Assembly: GCF_021028975.2 (NCBI RefSeq) | Contig: NC_059432.1 | Span: 7,874,001-7,938,000, forward strand | DNA from: Sphaerodactylus townsendi | Taxonomy: Eukaryota | Direction of reading: 5' to 3' | DNA: 64,000 nt | The notes under the pieces: model-generated | What the model was told of the DNA's origin: nothing | Databases searched by the model: none | The model's input: only the letters and a program-made list of their open reading frames with translations | Part shown: positions 18,160-63,206 of the stretch, piece after piece | Position numbering within the stretch: position 1 is the first letter of the stretch | Layout: each line of letters begins with the position of its first letter | Made by a program: the position numbers and the translations under genes

Positions 18160-20015
18160 CAGAGGTGCATTTGCCTAGGGACATGGGGTGACCCATTTAG
18201 TCACGTGGGGGGCGCAAAAATTTCAGGTTCGTTTGTGGGGGGTTTTTGTATTTTTTAGTGTTTTTTTCACTTTTGGGCTGGCAGGGGGCACAGTTTTAGG
18301 TTAGTGGCACCACAATTTCACAGTATCATCAGGTGACACTCCTGATGATACCAGCCAAGTTTGGTGAGGTTTGGTTCAGGGGGTCCAAAGTTATGGACCC
18401 CCAAAGGGGGCGCCCCATCCTCCATTGTTTCCAATGGGAACTAATAGTAGATGGGGCTACCCTTTTGAGGGTCCATATCTTTGGATCCCCTGAACCAAAC
18501 TTCACTAAACCTGGGTGGTGTCATCAGGATAGTCTCCTGCTGATACAATCCAGTTTTGTTGAATATTGGTTCAGGGGGTCAAAAGCTATGGACCCCCAAA
18601 GGGGGCACCCCATTCCCCATTGTTTCCAATGGGAACTAATAGTAGATGGGTTTTGAGGGTCCCTTTTGAGGTCCCTTTTGGACCCCTTGACCCAAACTTC
18701 ACTAGACATAGGTGGTATCATCAGAATAGTCTCCTACTGATATCACCCAATTTTGGTGAATCTGGCCACAGATGCAGGCGAAACATTAGGAACAAGATCT
18801 ACCAAACCACAGCCATGCAGCCCAGAAAATCCACAACAACCAACATTGAAAGTGATGCTGTTTGGGGGTTGGGTGGGTTTTAAAAAGAGAATCTGGGCTC
18901 TCTAAACAACATCAAAAGTGATGTTATTTGGAGGGTGGGTGGGATGGGGGGAATCCCCCCTGAAACAGCATCATTTTTGTTTCCAAGAGGTGCTGTCCTG
19001 CCTCGAGGCAGAGGTGTTGAGCATGCAAATGGGGACCTCGAAAAGTTTGGCAAGGTAAATTCTACTGGTATCTAGCCTCCAAGGATATATGCCAGGCTTC
19101 GATCCATAGGGAAACCCCGTAGAGAAGTTCTTGCTCACTATTACGAAATGACTTCCTTTCGCTCTGAAGTATGCACTTTATGAAACAGGAGTACCTGTTT
19201 TGTTTCATTAAACTGTATTTGGATTACTTAGTTCTGCTATGTTTTAATGCCTAATAAAGGTCTTTGAACTTTGGGGGAAAAAACAGCATCACTTTCAATG
19301 TTGTTTAAACTGGGGAGCCCAGATTCTCCCTTTAAGGTGGATTTAAAAGAAGAATCTGGGCTCTCTAGTCTAAACAACATTAAAAGTGATGCTATTTGTG
19401 GGGTGGGATGGGGGAAATCCACCCTGTTACAGCATCACTTTCAATGTTGCTTAAACTAGGGAGCCCAGAGTCTCCCTTTAAGGTGATTCTGGCTCTAAAC
19501 AATATTGAAAGTGATGCTATTTTGGGGCGGACCCCCCCCCCCAAATAGCATCAATTTCAATGTTGTTTAAAATAGAGAACCCAGATTATCCCATAAAGGT
19601 AGATTAAAAGGAGAATCTGCGCTCTCTAGTCTAAACAACATTGAAAGTGATGCTGTTTCGGGGTGGATTTTCCTTTTATAGGAGATTCAAAAGGTGAGCA
19701 CCTGGGCCCCTTAGTTTAAAACAACTCCCCGAAAAATGATGCTGTTCTCAGGGTGGATTCCTGCCCTCTCGCTCCGCCTTCCGCCACACACACACACAGC
19801 ATCACTTTCAATGTTGTTTAAACTAGGGAGCCTTGGGTGTGCAGATTTGTGAGTTGGGGCATGTTCTATAATGTGATGGTGACTTTGAGATGATCTGGTG
19901 CAAAAAAATCATTCTTTTGTTGTGGGGGTGGTGGCCGCCCACATGGGGGGTAGGTGGGATGGGGCGGAAAACTCAGATTTTGCCCTGGGCTCCATTTTTC
20001 CTAGCTACGCCTCTG
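18160..20015 (+). mobile_element. Non-autonomous hAT-like DNA transposon (family A) with nested Penelope (about 18762-18842) and LINE 3' fragment (about 18978-19272)
   Basis: Termini CAGAGGTGCA... and ...TAGCTACGCCTCTG; flanks cctacagg / cccccagg (6/8 TSD match); interrupts the L2 element. Confidence 0.7.
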
Positions 20016-21869
20016 CCCCCAGGGCATTCTGGAAACCAATTGGATCCATGAGTCTCCTTGGGAAGGCATAAAGAAGTCTGTCATTTAGGCAGAGCTTTTC
20101 AAATAATAGTTAAGCACTTTCTCAATAATTGTGCCCTTCAAAAACTCCCAGATAGTTAAAAAACATCCAGACAATATTTGTTAATGTGGTGTAGTGGCTA
20201 GAGTGTGAAACCTGGGTTTGAATCCCCACTTGTGCCATAGAAATTCATTTGGTGATCTTTCACCATTCACACACTATCACCCTAACCTACCTCACAGGGT
20301 TGTTGTGAAGATAAAATGGAAAAGAAAAGTATGTAAGACCCTCAGGGATCCACTGCAGAAAAATTAAAATGAAGTAAATAGGTAAATAAACACAGCACGT
20401 GTGAGGCTGAGAGCCTCTGAACCGTCAGGCTCCTCCTCGTCAGAGGCAGAACTGAGTCAGTTGGGTCGGGAGACTGAACTGAGGTTTCTTTTGTCTTTCC
20501 TAAACTGCCAGGGAGCATCAGCTGAGGCTGCTGCGTGAGAGGAGAGTGGGTGGGCCCTTGGAGCCTGCGGGAGAGGGGCTTCCGGCTGATTCTCTTGTCT
20601 GATCAGTTGGTGGCTGAGGAGGCTCTGCTTGCCGAGGGCCAGCCCTCTGCTGTTGCGGTTTCTGCTGCTCGCCTTTGAACTGTAAGGCTCCCCCTCAATC
20701 AAGGGGCCAGACTTTGGTGTGAGCCGAAGGGCTCTTGGCCCGGAGCTCTCAGCCTGGGGACCCTATCAGAATCAAAGAGGTTTTCACATTCCTATATGTG
20801 TTAGCCTTTTTGGCTTCTGCAAACGTTAGGCCAGATCTATAAGTTTCAGGTTTCATCAAGAGGCAGAGGAAATCCGAGGGTGAAGGTGGCAATGAGTGCT
20901 GAAGGCCCATTTCCAAGTTACCTGCAGGGCGCGCACCAGGTTTCTTTTCCTCCCTAAGAACAAGATGGACTTTGCTTGTCAAAAATGTAAGTTGATAGTT
21001 CTTTTAGAGGAGATCGTTTGGAGTCTGGAGGAAAAGATCAGTACCCTCCGTGAGGCCAAGGAAAGGAAGGAGTTCATTAACAGAAGCCACGGGGCCCTGC
21101 ATAAGGGTGGGGTGGTGGCCAAAGGGACAAGAATGTGGCCAATTTCCTGATGAGCATCCTCTGAACACTGCAGTGTGAACCCGAAGGTGTTGAACAAGAC
21201 GGCATTCAGTGCCACTGGAACTCAGGAACCGATTCCAGGCCACTGCAGTAGTGGCAGAGATGGAAACATGAGAAAAAGACGGAGGAGGGAGGAGGAGGGA
21301 CGGGTGTGACAAAGAAATAGCCCTGGGAGGAAAAGAGAAGTGTTGGCCATCGGTGACTCTGTGAGAAGAGATAAGGAGTGTCATGTGTCCAGGAGGCGTG
21401 TTGCGTGCTCCAGGAGAGATTAAAGATACCGCAGACCAGTGCCGGTTGCCAAAAACGAGTCAACGTACAGATCACGTTTGCGGGCCTGAACCATGAACAG
21501 CACCAAGGCTGGAGGGAACGGGGGCACAAATGGTGTCCTTCCCAGAAGAGGAAGAGGAAAGTGAAAGGAACAGAAGATAACAAGTGGGGGGGGGGGGGGC
21601 ACAAAGAACTAGCAGAAGCAAGCAGCTATCCCATTTCCACCCCCCTCCTTTGCTTCCTCCCCTCTCCCCCGACTTCTTTCTGACTCTCACTTTTTCTCCC
21701 TCCTGCCACTTCTTTTCTTACTCTCTGTCCTCCATGCCTGTCACTTTCTGTTTCTCCCCCCCCCCACCTTCCTGGCCACCTGCCTGCCTGCCTGCCTGGC
21801 TCCTTTCTCCCCACTCCCTGCCCCATCAGCTGCAGCATCTCTCCCAGAATCAAAACAGACCTCCCAGCT

Positions 21870-22810
21870 ACAGAGATTAGTTCCCCTTCGGGTTTCTAGC
21901 TCCATGTTGGGAAATTCCTGGAGATTTGGGGGTGGAGCCTTGGGAATAGGAGGTCTGGGGAAGGAAGCAACCTCCATGGGGTATAATGCCACAGAGTCCA
22001 CCCCCCAAAGCTACCATTTTCACCAGGGGAACGGCCTCTGTCATCTGGAGTTCAGTTATAATTCTGGGTGATCTCCAGGCTTCACCTGGAGGTTGGCAAC
22101 ACTAACTCCCCTGGAAGAAACAGCTGCTTTGGAGGGTGAAGTCTGTGGCATTCTGAGGCCCCTCCCCTCCTCAAACTCCACCCTCCCCAGGCATCACTCA
22201 TCGCAACCTGGAGTTGACAACCCAGCCCTCGCCCAATAGCCAGCCTACCTTTACCTGACCCTCTGCCTTAACATGTCCACCTTTCCACCCGCACAGCCTC
22301 CACCTTGGAAAAGGACAGTCTTTCCCACAGAGGGGACCAAAGTAGCTGGAGTTGGTCTCCTCCCCTCCTTTTCATCTGCACAAAAACCGTGTCAAATAAG
22401 CTCGGCTGAAAGCAGGTGACGGCTCCAAAGCCACCCAGTGAGCTTCTACGGCAAGGTGGGGATTTGGGCCTGGGTCTTCCAGCCCCTGCTCTGAAGCTCT
22501 AACTGCTCTAACATCACACTATCTTTCATGGGATGGCTGCCGTTGAACAGTCACAAGCAACAGACGAGGATGAACCGTCCAGTATCAACTCACTCAGAGG
22601 TGACTGCTCGGTCTAGGGTTGCCAACCTCTGGGTGGGTTCTGGAGATCCTCCAGAATTACAACTGAAACCCAAACTATAGAGATGTGTCCTTCTGAGGAA
22701 AATGACCACTCTGGATGGCATTAATACCCTGCTGAGGTTGTTTCCCTTCCCAAACCTCCCGCTTCCAAGGCTTCACTCCCAAATCTCTAAGAAACCTGGA
22801 GCTGGAAACC
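21870..22810. mobile_element. Cluster of short non-autonomous elements with agggttgccaacctc-type ends
   Basis: ggaggttggcaac (22088), ggagttgacaaccc (22210) and tagggttgccaacctc (22614), with a shared ctccagaattacaactga / tcagttataattctgg body. Confidence 0.45.
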
Positions 22811-26563: not shown

Positions 26564-26566
<3 letters not shown>

Positions 26567-26621
<55 letters not shown>

Positions 26622-28323: not shown

Positions 28324-28325
28324 CT

Positions 28326-28702: not shown

Positions 28703-29891
28703 CAAGGACGTAGGTAAGGGGGGGTTTCTCAGGTTCAACCCCCATTACATGTTTGAAGCTCCGCCCCTGTTTTTGTATTTTTAATGTTTTTTGTTTTTTG
28801 CCTGCAAGGGGCACATTTTTTAGGCTAGCAGCACCAAAATTTCAGGAACTTGTTGGGAGACTCTCCTGCTGATACCACCCAGCTTTGGTGAGGGTTGGTT
28901 CAGGGGGTCCAAAGTTATAGACTCCCAAAAGGGGTGCCCCATCCCCATTGTTTCCAATGGGAGCTAATAGTAGATGGGGCTACCTTAGGTTTAGTGAAGT
29001 TTGGTTCAGTGGGTCCAAATGTATGGACCCACTGAACCAAACTTCACTAAACCTAGGTGGTATCATCAGAAGAGTCTCCTGCTGATACTACCCAGGTTTG
29101 GTGAAGTTTGGTTCAGGGAGGTCCAAAGTGATGGACCCCCAAAGTGGGTGCCCCCATCCCCCATTGTTTCCAATGGGAGCTAATAGTAGACGGAACTACT
29201 CTTTTGAGCGGCCATAACTTTGGATCCTCTGAACCAAACTTCACCAAACCTGGGTGGTATCATCAGGAGAGTCTCCTGAAGATACCCTGAAAGTTTGGTA
29301 GCTTAACAATTGCACCCATGACAGCAGGCACCACCCAAATTTCCCCAGATTCTTCTTTTAAATACACCCCTTTCGGCATGGACTTAAAAGGAGAATCTGA
29401 GGCCCCCAGTTTAAACATTGAAAGTGATGCTGTTTCAGGGTGGGGGATAATCCACCCCAAAACAGCATCACTTTCAATGTTGTTTTAATTGGGGACCCCA
29501 GATTCTCCCTTTAAGGTGGATTTAAAAGAAGAATCTGGGCTCCCTAATGTAAACACCATTGAAAGTGATGCTGTTTGGGGGTGGACTCCAGCATCACAGC
29601 GCCCGCCCATTGGGGGGAACTCAGATTTTGCACTGGGCTCCATTTTCCCTAGCTACACCTCTGCCTGGAGGGGAGGGCTGAAGGAGCTGCCGGCTGCCAG
29701 CTGGGAGCCCACCGGTGGGGGGCGGGGGGGCGGGCGGGGCAGGGGAGTCTGCCATTCCTGGCCTCAGAAAGCTGCTTTTATAAGCACTGAGGTCAGGGGT
29801 GGGGCTTGGGGAGGTGTGGCCACGCCCTGGGGATGGGTGGGGTCATGGCCCTGCCCCTAACCCCCCCTAAAAATCTATACCTGTGTCACTG
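28703..29891 (+). mobile_element. Non-autonomous hAT DNA transposon (family B)
   Basis: TIRs CAAGGACGTAGGTA... and ...TACCTGTGTCACTG; TSD ccagcaaa / ccagcaag (7/8). Confidence 0.85.
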
Positions 29892-39099: not shown

Positions 39100-40865
39100 G
39101 TGGAAGAATCACAAATATAAGCAAGATAGGAGGAAGTCAGGTGGAGAAGAAATGGCACTGGGAAGAAAAGGAGATATATATATATATATATTGTCACAGG
39201 TGACTCCCTGCTGAGGGGTTTGGAACATCATGTGTATGGGCCTGGTCCCTGACCTGAAGGTATGTTGCTTGCCAGGGGCAAAAATAAGATATTGTAGATT
39301 GGATCCCAAAATTGGTCTAACTCACAGATCATCACCCATTTGGGACCTAATGACATGGCCATGAACACCTTCAAAAGCATGAAGGCTGAATATGAAGGTC
39401 TAGGAAGGAGGTTGAAGGCAATGGGGGCACAGGTGGTGTTCTCTTCGATTCTTCCTGTCAGAGGAAGGGGAACGCGATGGGAACAGAAGATATTGGATGT
39501 GAACCACTGGCTGCGATGGTAGTGCTGCCAGGAACATTTCGAACTCTGGAACCACAGGCCAGATTTCCTGGATGATGACCTTCTACATGTCGGACTTCGT
39601 CAATCAAGGTCAGGGAAGAATGTGTTTGGCAGAAACCTGGGGAGATTCATCAGCAGGGCTTTACACTGACAATACAAGGGAAGGAGATGACCAACCTAGA
39701 GATTTAAATGAAGGAAAGAGCAAATAGGGTATGGAAGGACTACTCATTAAATTTATAGATGATCCCAAATTGGGGGGAGCAGCAAACACTCCAGAAGACA
39801 GAGATGGAATTCAACAGCATCTGAACACACTGGGAAAGTGGGCAGACGTTAACAAGATGCAAATCAACAAGGATAAGTGCCAAGTTCTACATTTTGGTAA
39901 CAAACATTAGGAATACACATACTGGACGAGGGATACACTATTGAGTAGCAGTGTGTATGAACAAGATCTTGGGGTATGGGTGTTTGGGTATTAGTTAAAT
40001 ATGAGCAGTCAGTGAAATGCAGCAACAAAAAAAGCTAATGCAATCAATGGGTGCATCAACAGAGGCATAACATCCCAAATGGGGAGATGTCATAATCCTG
40101 CTGTACACCACGTTGGTCATGAGGCTTCACCTGGATTATTGTGTGCAGTTCTGGAGGCCTCACTTCAAAAGGGATGTGGACAGGAGGGAGCGGGTGCAGA
40201 GGAGAGCGACGAGGATAATCTGGGGCATGGAGACCAAACCCTGTGAGGGAAGGCTGAGGGGCCGGGGAACGTTTAGTCTGCAGAACAGGAGACTGAGGGG
40301 GAATATTTAAGAATCTGAAAGGCTGTCACTTAGAGGAGGACAGGGAGCTAAACTTCTTGAGTTCAATAAGAGAGCAGCAGTGGTGTAGTGGGTAAGAGCA
40401 GGTGCATTCTAATATGGAAGAATCGGGTTTGATTCCCCACTCTGCTGCTTGAGCTGTGGAGGCTTATCTGGGGAATTCAGATTAGCCTGTGCACTCCCAC
40501 ACACGCCAGCAGGATGACCTTGGGCTAGTCACAGCTTCTTGGAGTTCTCTCAGCCCCACCCACCTCACAGGGTGTTTGTTGTGAGGGGGGAAGGGCAGGG
40601 AGATTGTCAGCCCCTTTGAGTCTCCTACAGGATAGAAAGGGGGGATAGAAATCCAAAACTCTTCTTCACTCTTCTTCTAATGGGTTTAAATTATGGGCAG
40701 AAAGGGACTGGCTGGATATTAGAGCAAAATTTTACAGTCAGGATTATTTAGTCAGTGGAATCAGCTGCCAAGGGAGGTTGTGAGCTCCCTCTCATTGGAA
40801 ATTTTAAAGTAGGGGATTGGGCCAGATGGCCTGTTTGCCCCCTTCTAACTCTATGATTCTATGAA
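39100..40865 (+). mobile_element. Internally deleted CR1 (ORF1 esterase joined to RT C-terminus and 3' UTR)
   Basis: GRRLKAMGAQVVFSSILPVRG (SGNH esterase), then LLIKF.DD and HLDYCVQFWRPHFKRDVD...VQRRATR; tail ccttctaactctatgattctatga. Confidence 0.8.
40370..40677 (+). mobile_element. Squam3-like SINE inserted in CR1
   Basis: A box tggtgtagtgg, B box ggtttgattcc, (CTT)n tail; splits the CR1 sequence caataa|tgggtttaaa. Confidence 0.85.
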
Positions 40866-41033: not shown

Positions 41034-42425
41034 CAAGGATGTAGGTAAGGGGGGGGTTCTCGGGTTCAACCCCCCCATTGCATGTCCAAAGCTCTGCCCC
41101 GTTTGTGGTTTGTTTGTATTTTAAAGTGTTTTTTGGTTTTTGGCCTGCAGGGGGCACATTTTTAGGCTAGCAGCACCAAACCTTCAGGCTATCGTCAGGT
41201 GACACTCCTGATGATACCAGCCAAGTTTGGTAAAGTTTGGTTCAGGGGATCCAAGGTTATGGACCCTCAAAGGGGGTGCCCCATTACCCATTGTTTCCAA
41301 TGGGAGCTAATAGTAGATGGGGTTATTTTTATTTATTTTAGAGTTTTTTATACCGCCCCACCCCCGAAAGGTTACCATTTTGAGGGTCCATCTCTTTGGA
41401 CCCCCTAAACCAAACTTCACTAAATCTAGGTGGTATCATCAGGAGAGTCTCCTGTTGACACCAATTCAGGTTTGTTGTTTAGCCGAACGTTAGCGGACTC
41501 CCAAAGGGTGCGGCCCCATCCCCATTGTTTTCAATGGAGCTACTAGAAGATGGGGTCACAATCTTGAAGGTCTACAACTTTGGACCCCTGAACTGTGAAC
41601 CCCTCACTCAAATCTAGGTAGGTATCATCAGGAGGAGTGTCCTGTTGTACCACCAAGGTTGGTGAAGTTTGGCTCAGGGGTCCAAAGTTATGGACTCCCA
41701 AAGGGGTGCCCATCCCCATTGTTTTATTGGGAGCTAATAGAAGATGGGGCCACCTTTGAAGGTCTGGCACAGACCCCTAGACAAACTACCAAACCTGGAG
41801 TGGTATCATCCAGGAGGGAAGTGAAAAATACAAGATACCCTGAAAGTTTCCAGGTGACGTGCCTAACTAACAATTGACCCCTGACAGCAGGCACCACCCA
41901 AATTTCCCCAGATTTAAAGGGAGAATCTGAGGCCCCCAGATTAAACCTTGAAAGTGATGCTGTTTCAGGGTGGGGGATAATCCACCCCAAAACAGCAACA
42001 CTTTCAATATTGTTTTAACTGGGGACCCCAGATTCTCCTTTAAGATGGATTTAAAAGGAGAATCTGCGCTCCCTAATTTAAACACCATTGAAAGTGATGC
42101 TGTTTGGGGGTGGATTTCAGCATCACAGCAGCCACCCATGGGGGGCCCCCGCAAACCTCAGGTTTTGCACCGGGCTCCATTTTCCCTAGCTACCCTTCTG
42201 CCTGGAGGGGAGGGAGAAGGGACTGCTGGCTACCAGCTGGGAGCCCAGCCAGTGGGGGGGGGGGCAGGAAAGGGAGGTCTGCCATCTCTGGCCTTGGAGA
42301 GTTGCTTTTATAAGCACTGAGGCCAGGGGCGGGGCTTGGGGAGGTGTGACCACGCCCCCAGGGGCAGGTGGGGGCGTGGCCTTGCCCCTGAACCCCCCCA
42401 TAAAAAATCTATACCTACGTCACTG
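41034..42425 (+). mobile_element. Non-autonomous hAT DNA transposon (family B)
   Basis: TIRs CAAGGATGTAGGTA... and ...TACCTACGTCACTG; perfect 8-bp TSD GCTGGCCT (41026-41033 and 42426-42433). Confidence 0.9.
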
Positions 42426-43455
42426 GCTGGCCTACCAGTTACGGGCACGTTTTGATGAACCAACCGTCTTTATCCTTCTCACCCCTCTAACACTAAGGCG
42501 GTAGCATAGGAACCACTGGCAGCAAGTGCCCACATGACCAGACAGGAAGAGCCATAGTTACGGCCTCATGGGGCTGGGCAGGACAGGGAAAGAAAGGAGG
42601 CACCTGGAGGAAAGACTCCCTTGTGCAGAAAAGGAATCCTCTCCTCTCCACTGACCGATCCTGCCTCACCCTCCGGCTGTTTTCTGGAGAGGGGAGAGCC
42701 ACGGGCTTCGTGTTCTGGGCACGCGTGTGTGTGCTGCGAGCCCTTCCAGCAAGCAGCCCTTATTTGCTATGCAAAAGCTAAATTCTCCCTTTTTACAGAA
42801 AAAAAAAATCAGTCCGTACGGTTTTGTGGTACCCCACATAAATGCCACCCTTGGTCAAGCTAATTAAGGGGAATATTTTTTCCTCCTAGAGGCAGCCCTC
42901 AACAGAGATGGTTCCCAGGGGGCTGTCCTGCCAGAGGAGAGGCTCAAGGAACCACACGGTGGTACGGAAACTCTTAAATATCTCAGAGAGCTTAATTTCA
43001 AGAAGGCATAAACCTAGTAGTTCACTCACTTATTAGCGGTGCCACCAGTGAGAATAGAGGGTGAAAAGGTTGGTGTCCCCCCCTTGTGCAAGTGATAGAA
43101 TTAGGCTAGAAGAGGAAATAAATACCTCAAGAGTGGTGGTGCCCAGTAGCTTGAAACCTGACTAATCCAATTCCTTCCTCACCTGGGTCAAACAGGGGAG
43201 CTTGCTGAACCTGATTTACCAAACATCCCCTTGTATATTGCCTTTGCTGGCATCATGGGAAATAGAGGAAATATTGCGAAGGGCTCTTCAGCCCCCAGCT
43301 CTCTGACAAAACACAGTGGTGCTGGAGAGCATGAGGCAGTCTGCTCAGCTCACAATGCCTCTCATTTTCCCAGTGACCCAGTTCTGTTCAGGCTAGCCAT
43401 TTCTTTCTTTGACACACACACACAAGCAGGAACACCTGGCTACTTTAAATGAATT

Positions 43456-44927
43456 CAGATCTCCCAGGAGATTAAAAGAACTGGCAGAAGTAATCTCAGA
43501 ACCACTTGCTATAATCTTTGAGAACTCCTGGAGAACAGGAGAAGTCCCAGCAGGACTGGAGGAGGGCTAAGGTTATCCCCATATTCACAAAGGGGAAAAA
43601 GGAGAACCCTAATAATTCCTGTCCACTTAGCCTGACATCAATACCAGGAAAGATTCTGGAGCAGATCATTAAACAGACATTCTGCCAGCACTTAGAAGGC
43701 AATACTGTGATCACAAAAAGTCAGCATGGGTTTCTGGAAAAACAAGTCATGCCAGACTAATCTTATCTCTTTTTTTGATAGAAAGACCAATTTGGTACAC
43801 GAAGGGAATGCTGTGGACAGAGTACCTTGATTTTAGTAAAGCTTTTGACAAGGTGCCCCATAATATTCTTGCAAATAAGCTAGTGAAATGTGGACTAGAC
43901 AATGCTACTATTAGATGGATTTCTAATTGGTTGACTGATTGAACTAAAAAGCGCTCATCAATGGCTCATCTTCATCCTGGAGAGAAGTGACTAGTGGGGT
44001 GCCACAGGGTTCTATTCTGGGCCCAGTGCTATTCAATATTTTTTATTAATGACTTGGATAATGGAATAGAGGGCATGTTAATCAAATTTGCAGATGATAC
44101 CAAAACAGGAGGGGTAGCTTATACCGCAGAGGACAAAGTCAGTATTCAAAATTACCTGGACAGATTAGAGAGCTAGGCCAAAACGAACATAATGCATTTC
44201 AACAGAAATAAATGTAAGATACTACAGTTGGGCAGAAAAAATGGAACGCACAGATACAGGATGGGTGACACCTGGCTTGACAACACTACATGCAAAAGGT
44301 ATCTTGGAGTCTTAGTAGAACATGAGTCAGCAGTGCGATGTGGCAGCCAATAAAGCCAATGCGATTCTGGGCTGTATCTAGTATAGTATAGGAGTAGAGT
44401 ATAGTGTCTAGATCAAGGGATATTCTGCATTGGTTAGACCTCACCTGGAATATTGTGTACAGTTCTGGGCACCACAATTCAGGAAGGATAGTGACAAGCT
44501 GGAACGTGTCCAGAGGAGGGCAATCAAAATGGTAAAAGGTCTGGAATCCATGCCCTACAAAGAGAGGCTTAGGGAGCTGGGTATGTTTAGTTTGGTGAAG
44601 AGAAAGTTAAGAGGTGACATGATAGTTTAGATATTTGAAGGGATGCCATGTTGGTGAGGGATCAAGCTTGTTTTCTGCTGCTCCAGAGACTGGGACCAGG
44701 AGTAATGGGTTCACGGTGGAGGAAAAGATCACCTAAACATCAGGAAAAACTTCCTGACTGTCAGGGCTGTTCGACAGTGGAGTGTGGTGGAGTCTCCTTC
44801 TTTGGAGGTTTTTATCCAGAGGCTGGATAGCCATATGACAAGAGTGCTTTGATTGTGTGTTCCTGAAATTGCAGGGGGTTGGACTTGATGGCCCTTGGGG
44901 GTCTCTTCCAATGCTGTGATTCTATGA
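43456..44927 (+). mobile_element. CR1 LINE, 5'-truncated (RT and 3' UTR)
   Basis: DWRRAKVIPIFTKGKKENP...[40 protein letters not shown]; tail gtgattctatga. Confidence 0.92.
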
Positions 44928-47415: not shown

Positions 47416-47707
47416 GAGGAAGAAGAAGAGTTGGATTTATATCCCCCCTTTCCCTCCTGCAGGAGACTCAAAGGGGCTGACAATCTCCTGGCCCTTCCCC
47501 CCTCACAACAAACACCCTGTGAGGTGGGTGGGGCTGAGAGAGCTCCGAGAAGCTGTGACTAGCCCAAGGTCACCCAGCTGGTGTGTGTGGGAGTGCACAG
47601 GCTAATCTGAATTCCCCAGATAAGCCTCCACAACTCAACTGGCATAGCTGGGAATCAAACCCGGTTCCTCCAGATCAGAATGCACCTGCTCTTAACCACT
47701 ACGCCAC
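47416..47707 (-). mobile_element. Squam3-like SINE
   Basis: Reverse complement is near-identical to the 40370 copy; A box tggcgtagtgg, B box ggtttgattcc, (CTT)n tail. Confidence 0.88.
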
Positions 47708-49629
47708 AGAAATGGCGCATGTCACACTGAGGTCCTTGGGGAAAGGGCTGGATAAAGATGTATGGCACAACCATTCCATGACACGAATGGCAAACAAACA
47801 AAACCAGAGACTGGGAGCCCCCCTGTGCTTGCCCCCATCCCCTGCCTGCCACCAAGCGGCCTTCTGGCACATGCAGAGCCAGGGATCTGCAGGAGGCACC
47901 AACGGCTCTTTGCTGCCCACCCAGCCAGGGCTTCTTCAGGGCAAAAGCAACAGATGCTGCACCTTCTCCCCTGGCTGCCTGGAAGTGACAGCCCAGCAGC
48001 AATTTACACCCACTGCTGACTGCTGCCACCTTAGACAGCAGCAACTGAAGCCCGGGAGCCAATCCGGGGCCGTGTGAGCACTCCTCGCTCCCACCACTGT
48101 ATTCCAGCAGGATAAATTCTGGGCAGCAGCTGGGGCCCTTCGCCCTCTGCACGGCCTCGCTGCTCTTTGGCCCTGCATTTGCTCCCCAGAAGTGGAGAAC
48201 AGGACAGCTCCGCCTGACTGCAGGACCGCACAAGTTCAAACGACCACCCTCCAGCTTGGCACTTTCAAAGTAGGAAGGACCCCACACTTGTCCCTGGGTC
48301 CTCATTTGGTTTCCCACGGCGTAGCTGCCCTAAGATGGCCTGCAATTCCCAGCCCCTCGATTCTTTTAAGGTTGCACATGGCACCCGGCAAAACCTCTTG
48401 ATTTTTTTGGTTAAAGTAATGGTCTGTGGGCTGTGTGTGAGGCGGGGGACTAGGAGGGGCCTTTTCCCCAGCAGACCCCACCTGACAGGTGCCTGGGGGA
48501 TCCCGGTGTGCCTTGTTTGCTGCGTCACACAAAGGACTATGCAGATGAAACAAAAAGAGCACAACCCTTGCAAAGAGCCACCAAGGGTCAGAGGCCTACA
48601 GGTGTGTCCTTGTGCAGAGGATTCATACATGAACCAATCAAAGCAGGTGCCACTACTTTTCATTCACTGGGTCCCCATGCAATGCCTTGTGCAAGCTGCA
48701 TGTCCAGTGCAAAGAGTTTCCTTGCCAAATCTGCCCCCACCTGAAATCCCCCCCCCAACGCCCTCTGGTCCCAGACCGTGGAAGATCGTTTGCTTCAGCA
48801 TCCCACAGTCCAGGGGTAGGGAGTGACCTGCTCAAACTACCTGTAAAGATCTTAAAGTTTGCTTATTTCTTTTAAGTGTTCTTTTTTCTCTTGCAAAATG
48901 CTGTGTGTACAACTGTAAAATCCTGAGCTATTTTTAGGCTGGGCCCGAGGGGGGGGAGGTGGACAGATATCTTTTAAAAAATTGTTTAAAATTTATATAA
49001 CAGAAAAAGAAGATAAAAAGAAAAATGGATCCTATCCTAGTTACAATTCTAAATACTAAGAGAGACACCAATGTTATTTACATAGAACTATATAAAAATC
49101 TTAAATCAATTACAAATATTAAATATTTTTAAGGTAGATTGTAACAGACCAAGATTTTTCCAAGCAGGAGCAAAAAGAAAATCAGGAATTTTGTTATTCT
49201 AATGACTAAACAGGAGGGGTGGGCGCTGCTTCTCTTTCTTGTCCACCACTGCATACCTTCTATATAAAGCAATCCTGGACAGTGGGTGGGTACTGCACTT
49301 GCAAGAGGGGGGAACACCCTTTAAAAATAAACAGAGAAGACACCTTAATGTGTAGCTAAAGATCAGAGGGCATAGAAATTTGTGTTTGTATTGTGTGCAG
49401 TGGGGTACACACAATTATGGCCAGAATCATACTGAGTGTCCCCAAGGAACCATCTAGACAGCTGTACAAAGTCCACAGTTGAGTCTCCTGATATGTGTTT
49501 TTAAAGGTAAAAAGCATCCACCAGGTCTCTTGATTTGACCTGGGTCAGGACATAAGACCGGAGGGTGGGGGGGGGGGGGTACTTTTCCCCTACCAGAAAT
49601 TGCTCACCTTCTGAGCATTTATTACAAAC

Positions 49630-52070
49630 ATAAAGTTGGAAGAGGCCACAAGAGCCATCCAGTCCAACCCCCTGCAAGGCAGGAATACACAATCAAAGTA
49701 TCCTTGGCAGGTGGCTATCCAACCCCTGTTTAAAAACCTCCAAAGAAGGAAATTCCACCATCCTACAAGGTAGTGTATGCCACTGTCGAAAGCTCTCGCC
49801 ATCAGGAAGTTCTTCCTGTAGTTTAGGTGGAATCTCTTTTCCTGCACCTTGAATCCATTACTCCTTGTCCTAATCTCTGGAGAAGCAGAAAACAAGCTTG
49901 CTCCATCTTCAACAGGGCATTCCTTCGAATACTGAAACATGACTATCATGTCCCCACCTTAATCTTCTCTTCTGCAGGATAAACATGCTCAGCTGCCTGC
50001 CTAAGCCACTTCTCATAGGGCATGGAATCCAGACCTTTGACCATTTTGGTCACTCTCCTCTGGACACACTCCACCATGTCAATATCCTTCTTGAATTGTG
50101 GTGCCCAGAACTGGACACAGTATATCAGGTGAAGTCTGACCAATGCAGAATAGAGTGGTACTACTATGTTCCTAGATCTCCTATGGATGCAGCTCAGAAT
50201 TGTATTGGCTTTCTTGGTTGGTGTTTCACACTGCTGACTCATCTTCAGTTTCTGGTCTACTAAGACTCCCAGATCCCTTTCACATGAACTGTAGTCAAGC
50301 CAGGTGTCCCCCAGCCTATATCTGTGCATTTCTTTTTTTTCTGCCTAAGTGCAGAATCTTACATTTATCTCTGTTGAAATCCATGTTATTCATTTTGGCC
50401 CAGCTCTCTATTGGTCCAGATAATTTTGAATTCTGACCCTGTCCTCTGAGGTATTCATTACCCCTTTTAATTTGGTGTCATCTGCAAATTTGATTAGCAT
50501 GCCTTCTATCCTATCATCCAAGACATTGATAAAAATATTGAATAGCACTGGGCCCAGGACAAAACCCAGTGGCATCTCACTAGTAACTTCTTTCCAGGAC
50601 AAAGATGAGCCATTGGTGAGCACTTGGGTTTGATCAGTAAACCAATTAAAAATCCATTTAACAGTAGCATTGTCTAGCCCACATTTTAGTAGCTTGCTTG
50701 CAAGAATGTCATGGGGGACCTTGTCAAATGCCTTACTGAAATCAAGATATGCTACATCCACAGCATTCCCTTGATCTACCAAACCTGTCACTCTATCAAG
50801 AAGAAGAGGAAGAAAGGAAGGAAGGCAAAAGAATGAAAAAAGAAAGAATGAAAGAAAGAAAGAACGAATGAAAGTGGAGGAGGAGGAGGAGTCTGGCATG
50901 ATTTGTTTTTGAAAAACCCATGTTGACTTTTAGTGATCATGGCATTCCCTTCTAAATGCTTCCAGACTGTTTAATGGTTTGCTCTAGAATTCCTGGTATT
51001 GATGTCAGGCTGACTGGGGACTAATTGTTTGGGACCTCTTTTTCTCCCCTTTTTAAGATGGGGAGAACATCAGTTCTCCTCCAGTTTGCTTGGACTTCTC
51101 CTGTTCTCCAGGAATTCTTAAAGATTATTGGGTTCTGACATTACAGCTGACAGTGCTCTTAATACCCTGGGATGTAGTTAATCAGGCTCTGGAGATTTGA
51201 ATTCATTTAAAGTAGCCAGGTATTCCTAGCCTACCTTTTTATTTATTCTGAGCTCAATTTCCCCTACTGCATCTTCTGTTCCATTTCTTCCTGGTTGAGC
51301 ACTGTTTTCCTTTTGGGAGAAGAGCAGGAGAAAGAAGGTGTTGAGTAGTTCTGCCTTTTCTCTGTCCTCTGTTAGCATTTTGCCATCTTCTCCACATAGT
51401 GACCCTATCACATCTTTTTTCTTCCTTTTGCTATGGACATAACCAAAAAACCCTTTTAAAACAGTTTTTAACCTCTTTGGCAAGACTGAGTTCATTCTGC
51501 ACTTTTGCTTCTCTGACTTTCTCCCTACACATCCTCGCTATTTCTTTGAATTCTTGTTTGGTGATTTCCTCCTTTTCCCGGTTTTTGTTCATGTCCCTTT
51601 TAAATCTTTGCTCAATTGAAAGGTCTTTGGACACCCATCCTGATTTCTTTAGACAGCTCCCATTTTTCCTCCTCATTGGAACTGTCTGAAATTGTGCTTC
51701 AAGATCTCACTTTTAAGAAACTCCCATCCCCCCTGCACTCCCTTCTTGTTCAGTATTCTTAACCCTGGGATCACACCCAGTAGTTTCCTGAAATCCGCTT
51801 TCTTAAAGTCTAGCATGTCTGACTATGCTTGGCGTCCCCTTTCCACTGAATAACAAACTCCAGGATAACGTGGTTTTCCCACCTAAGGGATAATTGACAT
51901 CTCCTATTACTACTTTTTCTTTCTGAAAGTTTGGTCGTCTGTTCCAGGAAGGCATCATCCAACCCCTCAGTCTGGCTTGGGGGGTGGGGTGGGGGTGGTC
52001 TGTAATAGACCTCCATAACAAGATCACTGTTGTTCCTCTCCCCTTTAATTTTTACTTTCAGAACAAATGA
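49630..52070 (-). mobile_element. CR1 LINE (partial endonuclease, RT, 3' UTR)
   Basis: [38 protein letters not shown] and [13 protein letters not shown] on the minus strand; purine-rich microsatellite insert at about 50798-50890. Confidence 0.92.
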
Positions 52071-54610: not shown

Positions 54611-55589
54611 GGACTGAAACTTCTCTCACATGCTTATTCTCCAAGGACTGACTCTGTGGCTCATGTGCCTGTTCCTTATCCTCACTGACAAGAGAGATAA
54701 CTTCTGTAGCTTCAAAATTCAAACCCAGTTCTCTCCAAACATCCTCAGCCCTGCTGACCTCGCAAGGTGTCTGTTGTGATGAGGGGAAAGGAAAGGAATT
54801 TGTAAGCCCCTTTGAGTCTCTTTATAGGAGATAAAAGGGGGAGGGTATAAATTCAAAGTCCTCCTATTTCTCCTTCTTCTAAATAGATTACGGGGTGAAG
54901 AATCCTAGTCCCACATCAGATCTAATTAGACCTTTAATTGTTCAAAACCAGCATAGCATCCAGAACCTGCAGAAGAACCCAGAGAATATATGTGGGAATG
55001 CAAAATACGCACAGCCGCACCAGCTCCACCCAGCAGCTATGAAATGTGCTGTGAATTCGATGGATAACGCAGACACATGGCCTGAAACGCCTTTTCCTCC
55101 GCCCCTCTTTTCCTTTCCACTTTTCTAAACTGGCCTTGGTTCTGTCTTCTCTCCCCTGCATCCCTTGCCCACCTGTTTCTCCATTAACTGGCTTGGGTTC
55201 TGCCCAGCATTTCTGTGGGAGCAAGGATTTCTGCTGGCACACTGGGAGGCATGAGGGGGGGAAAGGCCTTCCACGGGCACCTGCAGGAACACGCCCCTCT
55301 TCCTAGCTTTCTCTCTGGCCCCCTGTTCCTTCCAGAGCAGTGAGCTGGATGTTTGGGGGTTGAAAGAATAGCTTTGCATACACTCTAAGGGCGACTCCCC
55401 ACAGATGATTAATCGTGTGATACTCATGTGATAAATCATGCTTTGAACAAGAACTCCCCATGGCCCAAATGCTGAACACGGCTTCATTATGGCTCTGGCG
55501 TGCATCCCCCCCTCATCACACTGTTTTCAGAACCTGCATGAAGTACACCTTTTTGCCTATCAAGCACCAAAGGTGGGGAGAAACAGGGG

Positions 55590-56090
55590 CAGATGCGTGT
55601 TATTGTTCCCGCCCTTGGAGCCTTCCAGCCAATCAGAATGCAATGGGCTATCTTTAAAAAATATATACATTTAAGGAAGTATGCGAGAGCCTGGCAGGGG
55701 CGTTTGTTTGGGGGGCGGGCTGGGCTGAGCTGAGGGGCAGTAAGCGGAGGCCCCCATGGGGAGGAGGTGTGGCAAGGGAGAAGGGTTGAGGGTTGGGCCC
55801 CTCCGAGGGGCCGCCGCCACTCTTCTCTTGCGAGCACGGCTGGGTAGCTGTCAGGCGAAGGGTGTCGTGCAGCTCGGCAGTGTGACCAGTTTAAATAAGT
55901 GAAGCGTGGTGGTTGTGCAGTGGAGCAGTCATGCAGCTGCCAGCCGGCAAGGGCTGGCGGAGGTGAGCAGCCAGGCCTGGGGGGCTACTTCCCCTGATAT
56001 GCCACTGCCGTCACCTCCCCCACCAGGCTTGGAGGACCCCAGGCTCCCCTCGCTCGCCCTCCTTCTCCAAAGGTGGGGGGGGGGGTAGAG
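55590..56090. promoter_or_regulatory. GC/CpG-rich segment with CCAAT and GC boxes (promoter-like; could be TE-derived)
   Basis: agccaatcag at about 55627, gggggcggg at 55711, elevated CpG. Confidence 0.25.
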
Positions 56091-59000
56091 GAACCCGCCT
56101 GAGACAGCTCACAAAGTAAAAAAAACAACACAATAAAATCACAGAAATAGCATAAAGACAACAACAGCCACTAAACCAAGCTGACCTGGCAACTCCCTCT
56201 GGGATTTTAAAGGCAAGTAACGAACAGTTGGTTTGCCACTGCCTGACTCTGAATAGCAGCTTCTTTGGTGGTCTTAAATCCAAAAATTAACCCGAGCCAA
56301 TCCTGCTGAGCTTCTGAGACCAGGTGAGACTGGAGCAGCCAGGGCCGCCACCCAGGTTAGGGGCCATGATGAATTGTGCCCAGTAACAGGACAGCAATGC
56401 AAATCGGTCAGCAGAAGGGCAAGGCAATTTCCTAGGCTTCCAGGAACTTGATTTGAAATATCCTCCTCTCTGGCCAGAAGTTCCTTTACTTCCACAAGTC
56501 CCTTGCTTCTGAGTGGCGTTCAGACAGAAAGCGCAGTGTTTGCAAACTGAGTCCTGGCGTGTATGAGGCTCGAAACCCCTTTGCAAAGAGCTGGCCTTCA
56601 CGTGAACAGCTAAGGATTAGGCAGCAGGAGAATGGGACTGGTGGGGGTGGGGAGCTGTTTTCTCACCTAGCACAACCCCAGCCACCTCACCGTTCCAAGC
56701 AGATCCCTCTGCTCCTTCCCTTTACCTTTGCACAGTACATAAAAAAGGTTCACAAACAAAGGGGCATCCAGCTACAAAACCACATTTTTCTTGTTGTAGT
56801 AACCTGAGCCCACAATCCTCCTGAAGACACCTCTGATAGCAACACAAGGCACAATCATACTCTCTTATTTTCAGTCAATTAACCTCAAACAGAATTACCA
56901 CCCACAGTTGTCTCCATCAGAATCCCCATCCAGGCGTCAGCATAGAACCGCATTTTGACAATGTCCAGGGTAAGGGGAACTTGTTCACTAGGCTTGAAAC
57001 AGGGATTTCCTGGGCAATCGCTCACATCACGTGACCTCAAACATGCTCTGGAGTCAGGAAAAGGTGGGCGCAGCAGAAGTCTGAGGATGTGGCATGAGAT
57101 GCCGCATGACGGGAAAGCACAGCAACAGCATTCCTACCAAAGCAAAGAGTTTACGGCTAGCCACCCAGTATGGTATTTTCAGGTCTCCCAATCCCACCCC
57201 ACCCCTGACCTGCCAAGGCATATTCTGCTGATCCGCAGCCTAGATCTGCTCCGGTTCTCTCGGCTCAGCAAGGATCAGTTCTGAGTAAATGTGACATCCA
57301 TCTGGATCAGAAGGACATGCCTTCCTGGAGAATCCAATCCTCAGAGACAGTAAACAAGTTCTGAGCCACTCCACCACCCTCGGAGAAAATGGTTCCGTGA
57401 CTGAGGGCAGGAGGTTCAATGTACGAAGCATCACTCCGTGCCGACTACTGAGTTTTCATTTCTAAAAACTGAGAAGTAGGAGGAGCTTCTTCCACACCAT
57501 CATTTTTAGAAATGAAGGCCTGCCCTCACCCAACAATGTATACACACCTGTGTGCAGTCTCACCATATGTTCGGATCAACATACACATTCATTTAAAAAA
57601 CTACATATTGTCGGTCAATGCTGTGTATGGCACCATTAAATCAACAAGAGTCTCCACGGACTGCCCCAGATCTTGTTTGCAACAAATACTGATTTATGCT
57701 CTGCCTTTGACTCAATAAACAGGGATCAACTGTGGGAAAATCAACTAAGATCACTATTAATAAAGGCCTCATCTGGTTAATTGATAGCGAGGTCAGCTTA
57801 GCAGCATGGCAACTGACACTTGTTTTGTTCAATTTAAGAAGAGAAAGGCCTTGCCAGATCGATCCTGGCCAAAACGATCCCTCTCTGGTCTGGAGCAAGA
57901 CTGGCACTAGCTGTTAGGCACGGGTGTGGCGAACAGCAACCCTGGAAATAAAGTGGAAGCAGAACTCCCTCCAGGCCCGTGTCACTGCCTCAAGCAAGAG
58001 GCCCCATCCCAGAGGCGTACCGGCAGAAAATGGGGCAAGATCAGATTTTTTCCACCCCTGCTGGAGCGGTGACGAGTGAACGCAGCCTTCCCCAGAGGGA
58101 AGAGGGAGGGGGCAATACCACATGGCAATTCTTAAGGCAAGCTGGGCGCAGCCTGTTTAAGCTGTGGGGGCCGGGGTGAGGCCGGGGTCAGCAGTTCGGG
58201 CCATGCCTGAGGGGGTGTGGTTTTGGGGCTCCCGGGCCTTTTCAGCAAGCTGGAGGCGGCTTGGCTTTCAAGCAAGGAGATCTGGGAAGGCCAGCGTTCC
58301 AGAAGCGGGACGCTTCTTGCGGGGGCTGGTCTTGGCAGGGCCCTGCTTACTGCCTTCCTGGCCAGATGTGGCCAGTTTTAAGCAAAGGGCCAGGCCAGCA
58401 AGGGTGAGCCAGCACAGGTGGGTAGGGGCCTCCTCGACTGATGGTCCCGGCATTGGGAGAGGCAGTAGACCATTCCTTCACTAGCCAGGAGCCAGTTGGG
58501 CACAGGCTGGCTCCTCCCCACCAGGCCGGGGAGCTGCTGGGATGGGAGGGGTGCCTGGGCGTGTGGATCGATTTTGCGCCCTCCAAGTGATAAAATGCAT
58601 GGCGCCTGGGGACATGTGATACCACATGTCCCTCTGGGCGGTACGCCTCTGCCCCATCCCTTTCCAGCCCTGCACTGCTGCCAGCTGCTTCTAAGCCACA
58701 GTGTTTTGGCCCCAGCCAGCCAAGCATCCCCTGCTCTGCTGATGGCTGGGCCAAGTTCCACCACACATTATGCTAACCCAAATGCTTGCTTGGGTCCCTC
58801 ATCCAAAGCCAGCGGAATAGCCTACAAAATGGGCTGCTTCTGCAGGGAATTTGCAGATTTGCAGTAAGTGACAGCATTTCTTCTGGGCCCTGGCTCCTCT
58901 AATGTATCTTATTAATGTAGAGACGTTGAGTATTTTTTAATTGTGACATTTGTGATATTGATCATTGTGGGCTGCACTGAGTACAAAATAAGGCAAGGTA

Positions 59001-59259
59001 ATATATCATTCCCTGGATATATATTTATTTCATTTCATTACCTTTATTGGCATAAGAAATAACAGAACAATAATACCAATAAGAAAGAATAATTAGGAGA
59101 GTATTGAAATAACAGTACATAAAAATTTGGCCACAGCCTCCAGAATCACATTGTTCTCATTATTGAGTAGAAATACAGTTTTTTGTGAGTCGCTTGACTC
59201 GACTTGATCTACCAGCAAGGGGGCTGGGAGCTTGGCTCCAACAGACACATACAAGGGGC

Positions 59260-60550
59260 CAGGGACGTAGGTAAGGGGGGGTTTTCTCGGGTTCAAACCC
59301 CTCCCATTCAAGTCCGAAGCTCCGCCCGCCAGTTTGTGGGTTTTTAAAACATTTTTAGTATTTTTTTGTTTTTTGGCCTGCAGGGGGCACATTGTTTAGG
59401 CTAGCAGTACCAAACTTTCAGGGATTGTTTGGGGGACTCTTCTGATGATACTACCCAGGTTTGGTGAGGTTTGGTTCAGGAGGTCCAAAGTTATGGATTC
59501 CCAAAGGGGTGCCCCCATCCTCCATTGTTTCCAACGGGTGCTAATAGGAGATGGGGGCTACACCTTTGAGGGTCCATAAGTTTGGACCCCGAGCCAAACT
59601 TCACCAAACCTGGGTGGTATCATTAGGAGAGTCTCCTAAAGATACCCTGAAAGTTTGGTACTTCTAGCTTAACAATTGCACCCCTGACAGCAGGCACCCC
59701 ACAAATTTCCCCAGATTCTCCTTTTAAATCCACCCCATATGGCATGGATTTAAAGGGAAAATCTGAGGCCCTCAGTTTAGAAGAAGAAGAAGAAGAGTTT
59801 GGATGTATATTCCCCCCTTTCCCTCCTGTAGGAGACTCAAAGGAGCTTAAAATTGTCTTGCCCTTCCCGCCTCACAACAAACACCCTGTGAGGTGGATGG
59901 TGCCGAGAGAGCTCCGGAAAGCAGTGACTAGCCCAAGGTCACCCAGCTGGTGTGTGTTGGAGTGCACAGGCTTATCTGAATTCCCCAGATAAGCCTCCAC
60001 AGTTCAAGCGACAGAGCAGGGAATCAAACCTGGTTCCTCCAGATTAGACTGCACCTGCTCTTAACCACTACGCAACATTGAAAGTGATGCTGTTTCAGGA
60101 TGGGGGATAATCCACCCCAAAATAGCATCACTTTCAATGTTGTTTAACTGGGGACCCCAGATTCTCCCTTTAAGATGGATTTAAAAGGAGAATTTGGGCT
60201 CTCTAGTTTAAACACCTTTGAAAGTGATGCTGTTTGGGGGTGGATTCCAGCATCACAGTGGCTGCCGGGGAGGGGGGGGGCAAGACTCAGATTTTGCACC
60301 GGGCTCCATTTTCCCTCTATGCCTCTGCCCAGAGGGGAGGGCAGAAGGAACTGCCAGCTGCCGGGTGGGAGCCCAGCTGGTTGGGGGCAGGGGAGGGCAG
60401 GGCAGGGGAGTCTGCTGTCCCCGGCCTCGGAGAGCTGCTTTTATACGTGCTAGGCCGGGGCTTGGGGAGGCGTGGCCATGTTCTAGGGACGGGTGGGGGT
60501 GTGGCCCCATCCCCGAACCCCCCCATAAAAAATCTATACTTATGTCCCTG
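59260..60550 (+). mobile_element. Non-autonomous hAT DNA transposon (family B)
   Basis: TIRs CAGGGACGTAGGTA... and ...TACTTATGTCCCTG; collinear with the 28703 and 41034 copies; TSD not preserved. Confidence 0.85.
59780..60073 (-). mobile_element. Squam3-like SINE nested in hAT element
   Basis: Highly similar to the 47416 copy; splits the hAT sequence cagttta|...aacattgaaagtgatg. Confidence 0.88.
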
Positions 60551-61387
60551 CAATAAGATATGCCAAACAGACTCTTCACAGGTGAGATTACAAATACATT
60601 TCCTCTTGTGGTGCGGGAGCCCCAGACTTCTTCCTTGTCGAAGAACAGAAGGTAAAACATTGCAACAAGCTAATGATTCAGCCCGTCACCATTTAGGCTC
60701 TATTAGCAATTGCAGATATCCTGCCATAGTTGAGTTATTCCCAAAAAGGAGGGAAAACAAAATTTATTGTCCTCATTTATCAATCCCCAGGTATTCCAGA
60801 TCAAGGAGCCTTGTTTTGATTGTACCAAATGCCTCCCTTTCAGTAAGCATGGCTAATATATATTTATTAAATGCTATACACACACACGCACACACACACA
60901 CAACACACCTTCATTTTTTAAAGTAGTAGGAAAAACTATGCCAGGGACTGGGGAGGAGTCGGTTCTTTTGTGATGTCACCAGTTATATCCAATCATAGCT
61001 GTGTACAACTAATGGCTACGCCAGACATGCAAGACCCGTTTGTGAGAACATTCCAGAAAAAACATGGTTTCTAACCAAATGCTGTTGTTGGCACTCTGGT
61101 GGATTCTGCACAGCATCTTTATAACAAGTTGCAATCGTTATAAATGAATTTGTATTTCATTTATAAAGGGAGAACTAATTCATTTATAATGGTTGTTATA
61201 AATATGCTGTGTGGAATCCACCCTTTCTCACTGCTGGAAACAGGAATGCCTAAGGAGAAAATGGGAAACATTCAGGAAAAAAAACCTTGCCCATCCTTTT
61301 TATTTCCCAAAGATTTCCCCCTACCCTCATTTTTCAACAAAAAAACCCCCCAGGAAATTTTAGTGACCACTTAAAGAACTCCCATGA

Positions 61388-63206
61388 CACATCAACTCCT
61401 TTACGGAGTTCCCCTTTGGATTGGAGCTTGGAATAAATCTGTAGAGAGAGTCCAGTCCAAATTTATTTATGAGATTTTTGGGGTAGCCCACTGTGTTCCA
61501 TATGCTGTTCTGTGTCTCGAATCAGGACAGCACTTGTTGGTAACCAGAGCATGGATAACTACCATATATACTTGCATATAAGTCAAATTTTTCAGCACAT
61601 TTTTTGTGCTGAAAAAGCCCCCTTCAACTTATACGCAAGTCAGGTGAATTTTAAAAAATATTTTAGGGGATTTACTTTGTAGACTGCCAGGGGGTGCAGT
61701 TTTTAGGCTAGTGGCACCAAAATTTCAGGGATTTTTCAAGAGACTCTCCTGATGATACCACCCAAGGATTTTGAGAGTAATGAGAGTTTGGTTCCAGGGG
61801 GTCCAAAAGTTATGGGATCCCCTAAGGAGGTGTTCTCCCCATCCCCCCCCATTGTTTCCTAATGGGGAGCTAATGAGAGGTAGATGGAGGCCTTGTGGCA
61901 ACATTTTTGAGTGGGTCCATAACTTTGGACCACCTGACCCAACCAAACTTCACCAAACCTGGGTGGTATCATCAGGAGGATCTCCTAAAGATACTCTGAA
62001 ATGTTGGTACTGCTAACATAAACATTGTTCCCTATCTCCTGACCAAAAATCCAGTTTTGAAGGATTTTAACTCTTGTGTTTTAGCTTGGTTGCTGGTTGA
62101 GCTAAGGTTTTTGTACTTCTAAAGTTATTGTTGAGACCATATTGTTTTTGTTGACCCTCTTTTCCACCTACAGAGCTAGTTTACTGTTTTTCTTTGAAAT
62201 AAATATTCAAAAACATTTAACCTACTGATGCCTCAATTAATGTAATTTTATTGGTATTGATTTTTATTTTTGAAATTTACCAGTAGCTGCTGCATTTCCC
62301 ACCCTCGATTTATACGCAAGTCAATACGTTTTCCCAGTTTTTTGTGGTAAAATTTAAGGTGCCCTCATTGACTTATATGTGTGGAGTGCGTACTTATACA
62401 CAAGTATATACGGTACATTGCAGGGAGATAAATTCTGGTCTCATCTTTGCTTTAATACTGAAGCTGAAAGTCTCACACATTTAGCCCTCTCTGAACTGAA
62501 ATCCTCTGAATGGTGGAAGTGTATAGAGGCCAAAATATCCTATTTAGGTCTCTCCTTCAAAACCTTTTTTATGCAATCTGCAAACGAAATTTGGCTATCC
62601 CTAAAAAGAAGGCTACTGGACCAGGAATACCAGTTGCTGTTGCGTGCAGCCAGGACATCTTGTTCTCCCTTGCACTATGGAATCTATCCTGAAATTAGCA
62701 TGACAGCTAAATATCTATCCCAACTATCAGAGCCCAGGCAGAGATGGAGCATTACTCGAGCTAGATGTAACGCATTCCCCTCTGCCGTTCTTAAGGGCCG
62801 CATACAGTTGAATATTCTCAGACTTCAAGATAGAACATGTACAGATTGTCAGGGATACTGTTGAGACCCTCGAAGGCATATATATGTTTTCTTGCCCGAG
62901 GTAGGCGCGACCTAGACTCCTCATCCTTTATTTGTCCGGCAAGGCACTAGGGGAATAAGAAAGAAGATTGTTCGGGCAGATACAAAGACTATTCACCTGC
63001 TGCATAATAGCGACGGCGGGGTAACTGGAAATACCGCTGAATTTGTATTAGAAGTGCTCAAGTCAAAGACATAATGGAAGCTTGATCACCTCTTCTGTAC
63101 CAACCTTATGTGTTTTGTCCAATTTTATGTCCTGTTTTAACACCCGCTCTGTCCTGTATTTTGTTTTATTTTTACTGATATGCCTAATAAAGGTCAGTTG
63201 AAGTTG
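61388..63206 (+). mobile_element. 5'-truncated LINE (RTE-X-like; clade uncertain), ORF2 C-terminal part
   Basis: 14-bp TSD AAGAACTCCCATGA (61374-61387 and 63207-63220); QLLYGVPLWI...VERVQSKF...RAWITT, then KFWSHL...ARCNAFPSAVLKGR; tail atgcctaataaaggtca(gttgaa)n. Confidence 0.8.
61562..62413 (+). mobile_element. Tc1/mariner-superfamily (Tc2/pogo-like) non-autonomous element nested in the LINE
   Basis: TIRs CCATATATACTTGCATATAAGT... and ...ACTTATACACAAGTATATACGG; TA TSD at 61560-61561 and 62414-62415; the LINE reading frame resumes after it. Confidence 0.8.

Follow-up and report, generated by a model that had tools for sequence, protein, structure and literature searches.

A non-coding fold-back segment (hereafter, the module) was found inside both hAT and pogo-type DNA transposons in a 64,000-nucleotide stretch of Sphaerodactylus townsendi DNA (contig NC_059432.1, positions 7,874,001 to 7,938,000 of the forward strand; hereafter, the window). 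We consider it likely (probability of roughly 0.7) that the module is hAT-derived, passive cargo that has been handed between elements by nesting, end loss, and copying into repair gaps. A sequence-only reading of the window had proposed either an independent mobile unit or a cargo that hitchhikes across transposase systems; our analysis supports the cargo alternative and confirms that the module rides inside families moved by unrelated transposases, i.e., families with hAT ends and an amplified, pogo-type (Passer) family with TA target site duplications (TSDs).

BLAST recovered the module at all five places where it had been noticed, with spans of 360-779 bp near the coordinates originally given; the locations were correct, with the exception of the left start, which really lies ~40 bp further left, in a T-rich stretch. 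The elements concerned and their parts are as follows:
18160..20015, + strand: non-autonomous hAT element of end type A (CAGAGG ends), with terminal inverted repeats (TIRs), a TSD matching at 6/8 positions, and later insertions inside.
18250..18760, + strand: fold-back module of ~1.5 units within the A element (BLAST).
28703..29891, + strand: non-autonomous hAT element of end type B, TSD 7/8.
28777..29332, + strand: fold-back module within this B element (BLAST).
29620..29664, + strand: A-type right terminus kept inside this B element (from the sequence; also in 21/30 B-right-end loci).
41034..42425, + strand: non-autonomous hAT element of end type B, TSD 8/8; module at 41117-41895.
59260..60551, + strand: non-autonomous hAT element of end type B, with no TSD of at least 6/8; module at 59341-59700.
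59777..60072, - strand: insertion resembling a short interspersed nuclear element (SINE), part of a B subfamily; matches 40385-40680 and 47416-47708.
61562..62413, + strand: Passer (pogo) deletion derivative with the module, TA on both sides.
61562..61644, + strand: Passer left arm of ~83 bp; identity to coding Passer copies, 79-85%.
61649..62049, + strand: captured module in the Passer derivative; its left junction matches the hAT A subfamily at locus L130.
62048..62413, + strand: final Passer transposase codons and 3' arm; identity to coding copies, 88-94%.
With regard to the element at 59260-60551, every one of the best 29 module matches lies behind a B left arm; the tail of its SINE-like insertion, which we take to be a Sauria SINE, recurs in other B copies.

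The five window modules are ~70-87% identical in pairwise comparisons. Their fold-back nature was evident when positions 59370-59700 were folded as DNA (-121.9 kcal/mol; z = -18.9; none of 100 shuffled sequences equal); the entire unit forms a single long fold-back, with a basic hairpin of ~300 bases, and the number of units ranges from one to many across copies. A structured RNA family was considered and rejected, as Rfam gave no match for L001 and L031. The GC-rich outer arm, present at 61682-61700 of the window and in all families, is presumably similar to the CTCF core motif, with the greatest similarity in the Passer composites, and the fold-back would, on the same assumption, supply two such sites in opposite orientation. 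In the 1.81 Gb genome, a 23-mer from the arm and a 29-mer from the core presented 4,450 and 10,267 exact matches, respectively; reversed-pattern controls presented none, and these matches are not attributable to chance. Forty hand-placed 10-kb stretches (400 kb) contained 13 module clusters, which scales to an estimated tens of thousands of modules genome-wide (roughly 5 x 10^4). A module 27-mer did not occur in metagenome contigs, a result that says little.

The sequence-only reading had distinguished three sets of ends around the module; there are indeed multiple end types, and they number at least four, including hAT A, hAT B, hAT C (TAGG ends; not in the window), and the Passer ends with a TA TSD. 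Surroundings were classified at the first 70 of the 23-mer matches and the first 30 of the 29-mer matches (27 distinct places), all located on contig C1 and picked regardless of flanks; the two sets overlap in a few places. The nearest termini were of type A at 46, B at 9, Passer at 7, and C at 6 of the 70 loci (none at 2), and of type A at 11, B at 10, C at 3, and Passer at 1 of the 27 (none at 2). A known terminus thus lay within 1.2 kb of 68/70 and 25/27 anchor loci, as compared to 33 of 377 control points. The four loci without a terminus represent three places, one with an A left end found on reading and two truncated fragments. Among the 13 clusters in 400 kb, 11 adjoin part of a known family; of the remaining two, reading revealed an A left end in one, and a microsatellite interrupts the other. 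No intact solo module was found in either anchor set or among these clusters. The ends of types A, B, and C all present the 8-bp TSD and short TIRs expected for hAT membership, with duplications matching at 7/8 or 8/8 positions for 22 of 33 A-like ends and 15 of 30 B right ends, and at 7/8 for C, which was read at L132 only. Type A represents a set of subfamilies, many of which carry the module, and the module was present in 22 of 30 loci with a B end.

The TA element had been assigned to Tc1/mariner; we place it, rather, in the pogo superfamily (Passer), not in Tc1/mariner proper. A search for DDE_1 domains gave 46 matches, and coding elements with the same arms as the TA element were found among the best 30 of these. 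The open reading frames of these coding relatives encode 439-462 amino acids with BrkDBD, HTH_Tnp_Tc5, and DDE_1 domains (in both proteins scanned), 35 residues separate D301 from D337 in the L178 protein (aspartates chosen by motif), and Passer ends carry a short TIR, with TA next to 27 of 30 on the left and 19 of 25 on the right. BrkDBD, HTH_Tnp_Tc5, and DDE_1 domains, a DD35D catalytic spacing, a TA TSD, and a short TIR are traits reported for Passer, including in reptiles, in the accessible part of its description (PMC7386202). By its domains, DD35D spacing, and TA TSD, the parent of the TA element is thus classified, from sequence features, as an autonomous Passer element. The two open frames are located at L178:832-2220 (462 residues) and L181:1306-2625 (439 residues), each with at least one terminal arm.

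From its Passer parent, the window element retains ~83 bp of left arm, the final codons, and the 3' arm, and the module occupies the former site of the gene; the module was not detected in coding Passer elements at any of nine loci tested (best E = 0.12). A search with the TIR only gave 3,668 matches, the first 30 loci of which represent 28 distinct elements, 12 with the module and 16 with other or no filler. This is the fair count; with a left-arm query, 29 of 29 other best matches ran on into the module, a count that is biased because the query contained ~40 bp of module flank. A single nested accident was considered for the TA case and is excluded by the 12 of 28 elements, which were chosen by TIR alone; the TA case is an amplified family and, therefore, not the lone nested insertion of a truncated hAT copy that the sequence-only reading had named as the outcome that would speak against it. 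Coding Passer copies are 86-95% alike. The window composite is nested in another dispersed repeat (61400-61556 and 62430-62600), other copies of which join across the site. The Passer composite was present only in small shares in RNA runs. Contigs from four runs with four organism labels contain the Passer arms and the module, and in all four runs the flanking repeat was also joined without the element, as expected if the Passer composite inserted whole. We also identified other short Passer-ended families with the same arms and different fillers (L202, L208, and L229; L216-217, L221, and L224; L222 and L230), one of which has a filler that is itself palindromic.

The junctions and the nesting of ends suggest an order of transfer. 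An A right terminus lies inside B in 21 of 30 loci selected through their B right end, and a C right end, mostly retained, lies inside two of six A elements tested; a B element of 147 bp without the module is found at L289 and L293. The Passer composites include two junction variants, one (TA1) nearly identical to a T-rich stretch of the hAT A copy L130 and the other (TA2) resembling the hAT A copy L165; no hAT terminus was found inside any of 25 Passer composites. A tree of the first unit of the module was built from 63 rows, starting from 77 (72 of 147 labelled arms, two short A rows, and three old paralogs) with six truncated or mislabelled rows and 12 near-duplicates removed and four B rows added; the TA copy of the window was filtered out. 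In this tree, 13 Passer modules group with the hAT A rows L130 and L165 (support 97/87), inside a wider hAT group (88/95). A single Passer capture was not rejected in an approximately unbiased (AU) test (p = 0.42). A single clade of B modules was rejected (p = 0.0004), and B elements appear, from the placement of their modules in the tree, to have acquired or swapped the module at least twice.

An older paralog of the module was found in a decayed coding hAT family. Among 73 matches to the hAT dimerisation domain, 30 were examined, and three loci had a diverged module ~1 kb past the gene. When one of these was used as a DNA query, 29 loci of an old coding hAT family were obtained, eight of which carry the module no more than 1.5 kb 3' of the transposase. 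Several of these eight are colinear in their 3' region, and five terminate 230-330 bp beyond the module in an AAGCCTA terminus that is also that of C elements, a right end thus common to C elements and the old coding hAT family. Old hAT copies are 66-77% alike, and their module is 61-64% identical to all versions in MITEs (miniature inverted-repeat transposable elements). Two further old hAT loci have young-type modules downstream; upstream of the old hAT genes, only a single young insertion was found, in two duplicated loci. The old hAT family is the oldest module carrier seen, and we infer that it was the source of the module. A relative, L419, contains an open frame of 917 residues (L419:2276-5026) with zf-BED and Dimer_Tnp_hAT domains; this frame stands out among decayed copies and may represent a domesticated gene.

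The sequence-only reading had also suggested that the module is an independent, Helentron-like unit that lands in MITEs. This suggestion is not borne out, given the absence of an intact solo copy in the samples described above, family-specific breakpoints, Helitron-adjacent modules that are hAT insertions, and the paralog in a coding hAT. The genome contains Helitron Rep genes (22 matches), and a Helentron source was tried as a candidate; module density near ten Helitron genes (4 in 200 kb, at 20 kb per gene) did not exceed the background density (13 in 400 kb), and the three modules inspected among these four represent one hAT A insertion with an 8-bp TSD and two C-type pieces. No Rep/helicase-endonuclease partner with the ends of the module was found at these ten loci, and the longest Helitron open reading frame presented domains of the Rep and PIF1 types, whereas its C-terminal 994 residues showed no endonuclease. 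Non-autonomous Helentrons (HINE, i.e., Helentron-associated interspersed elements, and DINE-1) are described, in the sections of the source available to us, as having 12-15-bp subterminal inverted repeats (subTIRs) and a separate 3' stem-loop (PMC4067079). Like these elements, the module is non-coding, has palindromic parts and T-rich surroundings, and contains variable internal repeats; unlike them as there described (PMC4067079), it was found without free copies, without a Rep/helicase partner, and inside TIR elements with TSDs, and the subTIR and 3' stem-loop layout was not present in it, as judged by reading without a dedicated scan. The module could still be the relic of a once-independent element (Helentron-like or foldback) that inserted into an old hAT or several MITEs and later lost its free copies to decay. 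Its own inverted arms, T-rich flanks, and variable unit number, together with the Helitron Rep genes in the genome, would fit such an origin, which we nevertheless regard as improbable, as the T-rich flank is shared inherited sequence and not a target, and as the solo copies, HINE layout, and endonuclease domain looked for above were not found. At L251 (G000:C6 near 121.157 Mb), a Helitron adjoining a long simple repeat contains an open Rep/helicase frame of 1,520 residues.

Under the passive cargo explanation, the module likely began as part of an old coding hAT and would have no mobility of its own, passing from the old hAT to C, from C to A, and from A to both B and Passer. Specifically, A may have acquired the module from C, B may have engulfed A, and Passer may have copied or trapped an A element, the hAT ends of which were then lost. 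Non-autonomous elements are moved in trans by a transposase that reads their outer ends, and each composite would, likewise, have been moved by the transposase matching its own outer ends. The capture by Passer would have replaced the transposase gene, either through interrupted gap repair with an A element as the template or through insertion of an A element and deletion of both hAT ends; interrupted gap repair is known to shorten elements, according to the portion consulted of a study of lizard hATs (PMC3014272).

Several observations weigh against this explanation. No coding parent for the A or B ends was found among the 30 of 73 hAT dimerisation-domain matches examined, and the left end and TSD of the old coding hAT were not recovered. 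In 21 of the 29 old hAT loci no old-type module was found within 1.5 kb; these include the L419 relative with its intact frame, where the 3.5 kb downstream also lack one. In two of the eight others the module matches young copies as well or better. The Passer junction presents no evident microhomology, and all left breakpoints fall within ~40 bp, which passive capture explains poorly. Finally, Passer modules branching before all hAT MITE modules were not rejected (AU p = 0.22); because of this result, the direction of transfer rests on the parent comparison, the ages, and the junctions.

The last of these observations bears on a partly reverse path, in which Passer composites supplied the module to some hAT A subfamilies or gene conversion took place between copies of unrelated families. 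Such a path would account for the hAT rows L130 and L165 inside the Passer group and for Passer composites that have identical arms and hold different first-hairpin variants; however, both hAT rows are short, one being less than half filled, coding Passer elements are without the module, and the hAT versions are older and more diverse, making this path very unlikely overall. The clustered breakpoints bear on a different explanation, in which the module is cargo but active: its hairpin, or a site for a host factor within the arms, would aid transposition or survival of the ends that capture it, and the module would have been selected repeatedly across transposase systems. There is room for an active role because the left breakpoints cluster, just outside the GC-rich arm, and the module share is high in several families (12/28 elements with the Passer TIR, 22/30 loci with a B end, and many A subfamilies); more than one gain or exchange in B points in the same direction. 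However, module-free families with the same ends have also spread (L289, L293, L202, L208, L229, and an A element in L419), and an abundant repeat is the likeliest filler on numbers alone. We hold it to be unlikely, although somewhat less so than an independent origin, that the hairpin acts as a portable booster of cut-and-paste transposition, perhaps by offering a site to a host protein, and serves unrelated transposases so that capturing ends spread.

In SINE superfamilies, central domains (CORE, V, and Deu) are kept while the enzyme-recruiting ends around them are exchanged; these elements are retroposons, and the domains are conserved across phyla. The module resembles such domains in being a retained middle with exchanged ends; it differs in being cargo of DNA transposons that was seen only here and in runs with four organism labels. 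If the booster role were true, the module would be to DNA transposons what the shared central domains are to SINEs; if it is passive, it represents a tidy instance of a known process. As the Passer ends are known, the effect of an internal hairpin on unrelated transposases is directly testable.

The module had been put forward as the strongest candidate for an undescribed system. This is too strong, as lizard hATs are already known for element capture and end exchange, as reported in the part of the literature source at hand (PMC3014272). In Anolis carolinensis, the non-autonomous hobo_AC families are described there as capturing pieces of other elements, including those of other superfamilies, and as having ends and middles swapped by recombination, with the cargo co-amplified (PMC3014272). 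The families described here are, likewise, lizard hAT derivatives with captured cargo and exchanged ends; whereas various fillers are reported within the hAT ends of hobo_AC in the available text (PMC3014272), here one hAT-derived palindrome is common to many families and to a pogo element with an identified parent. The coding parent of the TA element is like Passer as characterized in the accessible text in its domains, DD35D spacing, TA TSD, and short TIR (PMC7386202); unlike the Passer elements described in that part of the source, the window element is a derivative that lacks coding capacity and carries a foreign filler, and no such composite is described in it (PMC7386202). Thus, capture and end-swapping have been described in Anolis, as far as the consulted part of that report goes (PMC3014272), and no earlier description of the module, or of a hAT-derived filler in Passer, was found in a mostly open-access literature search that did not cover Dfam or Repbase. 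The composites represent a traceable transfer of sequence across the hAT-pogo boundary, followed by amplification, with parent, likely donor, and junction in one genome, and repeat libraries built on best hits will mislabel and misdate these composite families.

Three minor observations were also made. A second palindromic module, common to A and B and not found in the Passer composites, is located at 19280-19670, 29344-29585, 41911-42116, and 60073-60246 of the window, with several arrays in the A copy. Positions 43428-44911 and 49636-51227 form an inverted pair of a 1.5-kb repeat, the copies of which are 76-78% alike. Outside the window, the region at ~7-13 Mb of G000:C3 contains a cluster of many long open frames of the DDE_1 and hAT kinds, including one of 3,768 residues, and resembles a field of transposase-derived genes.

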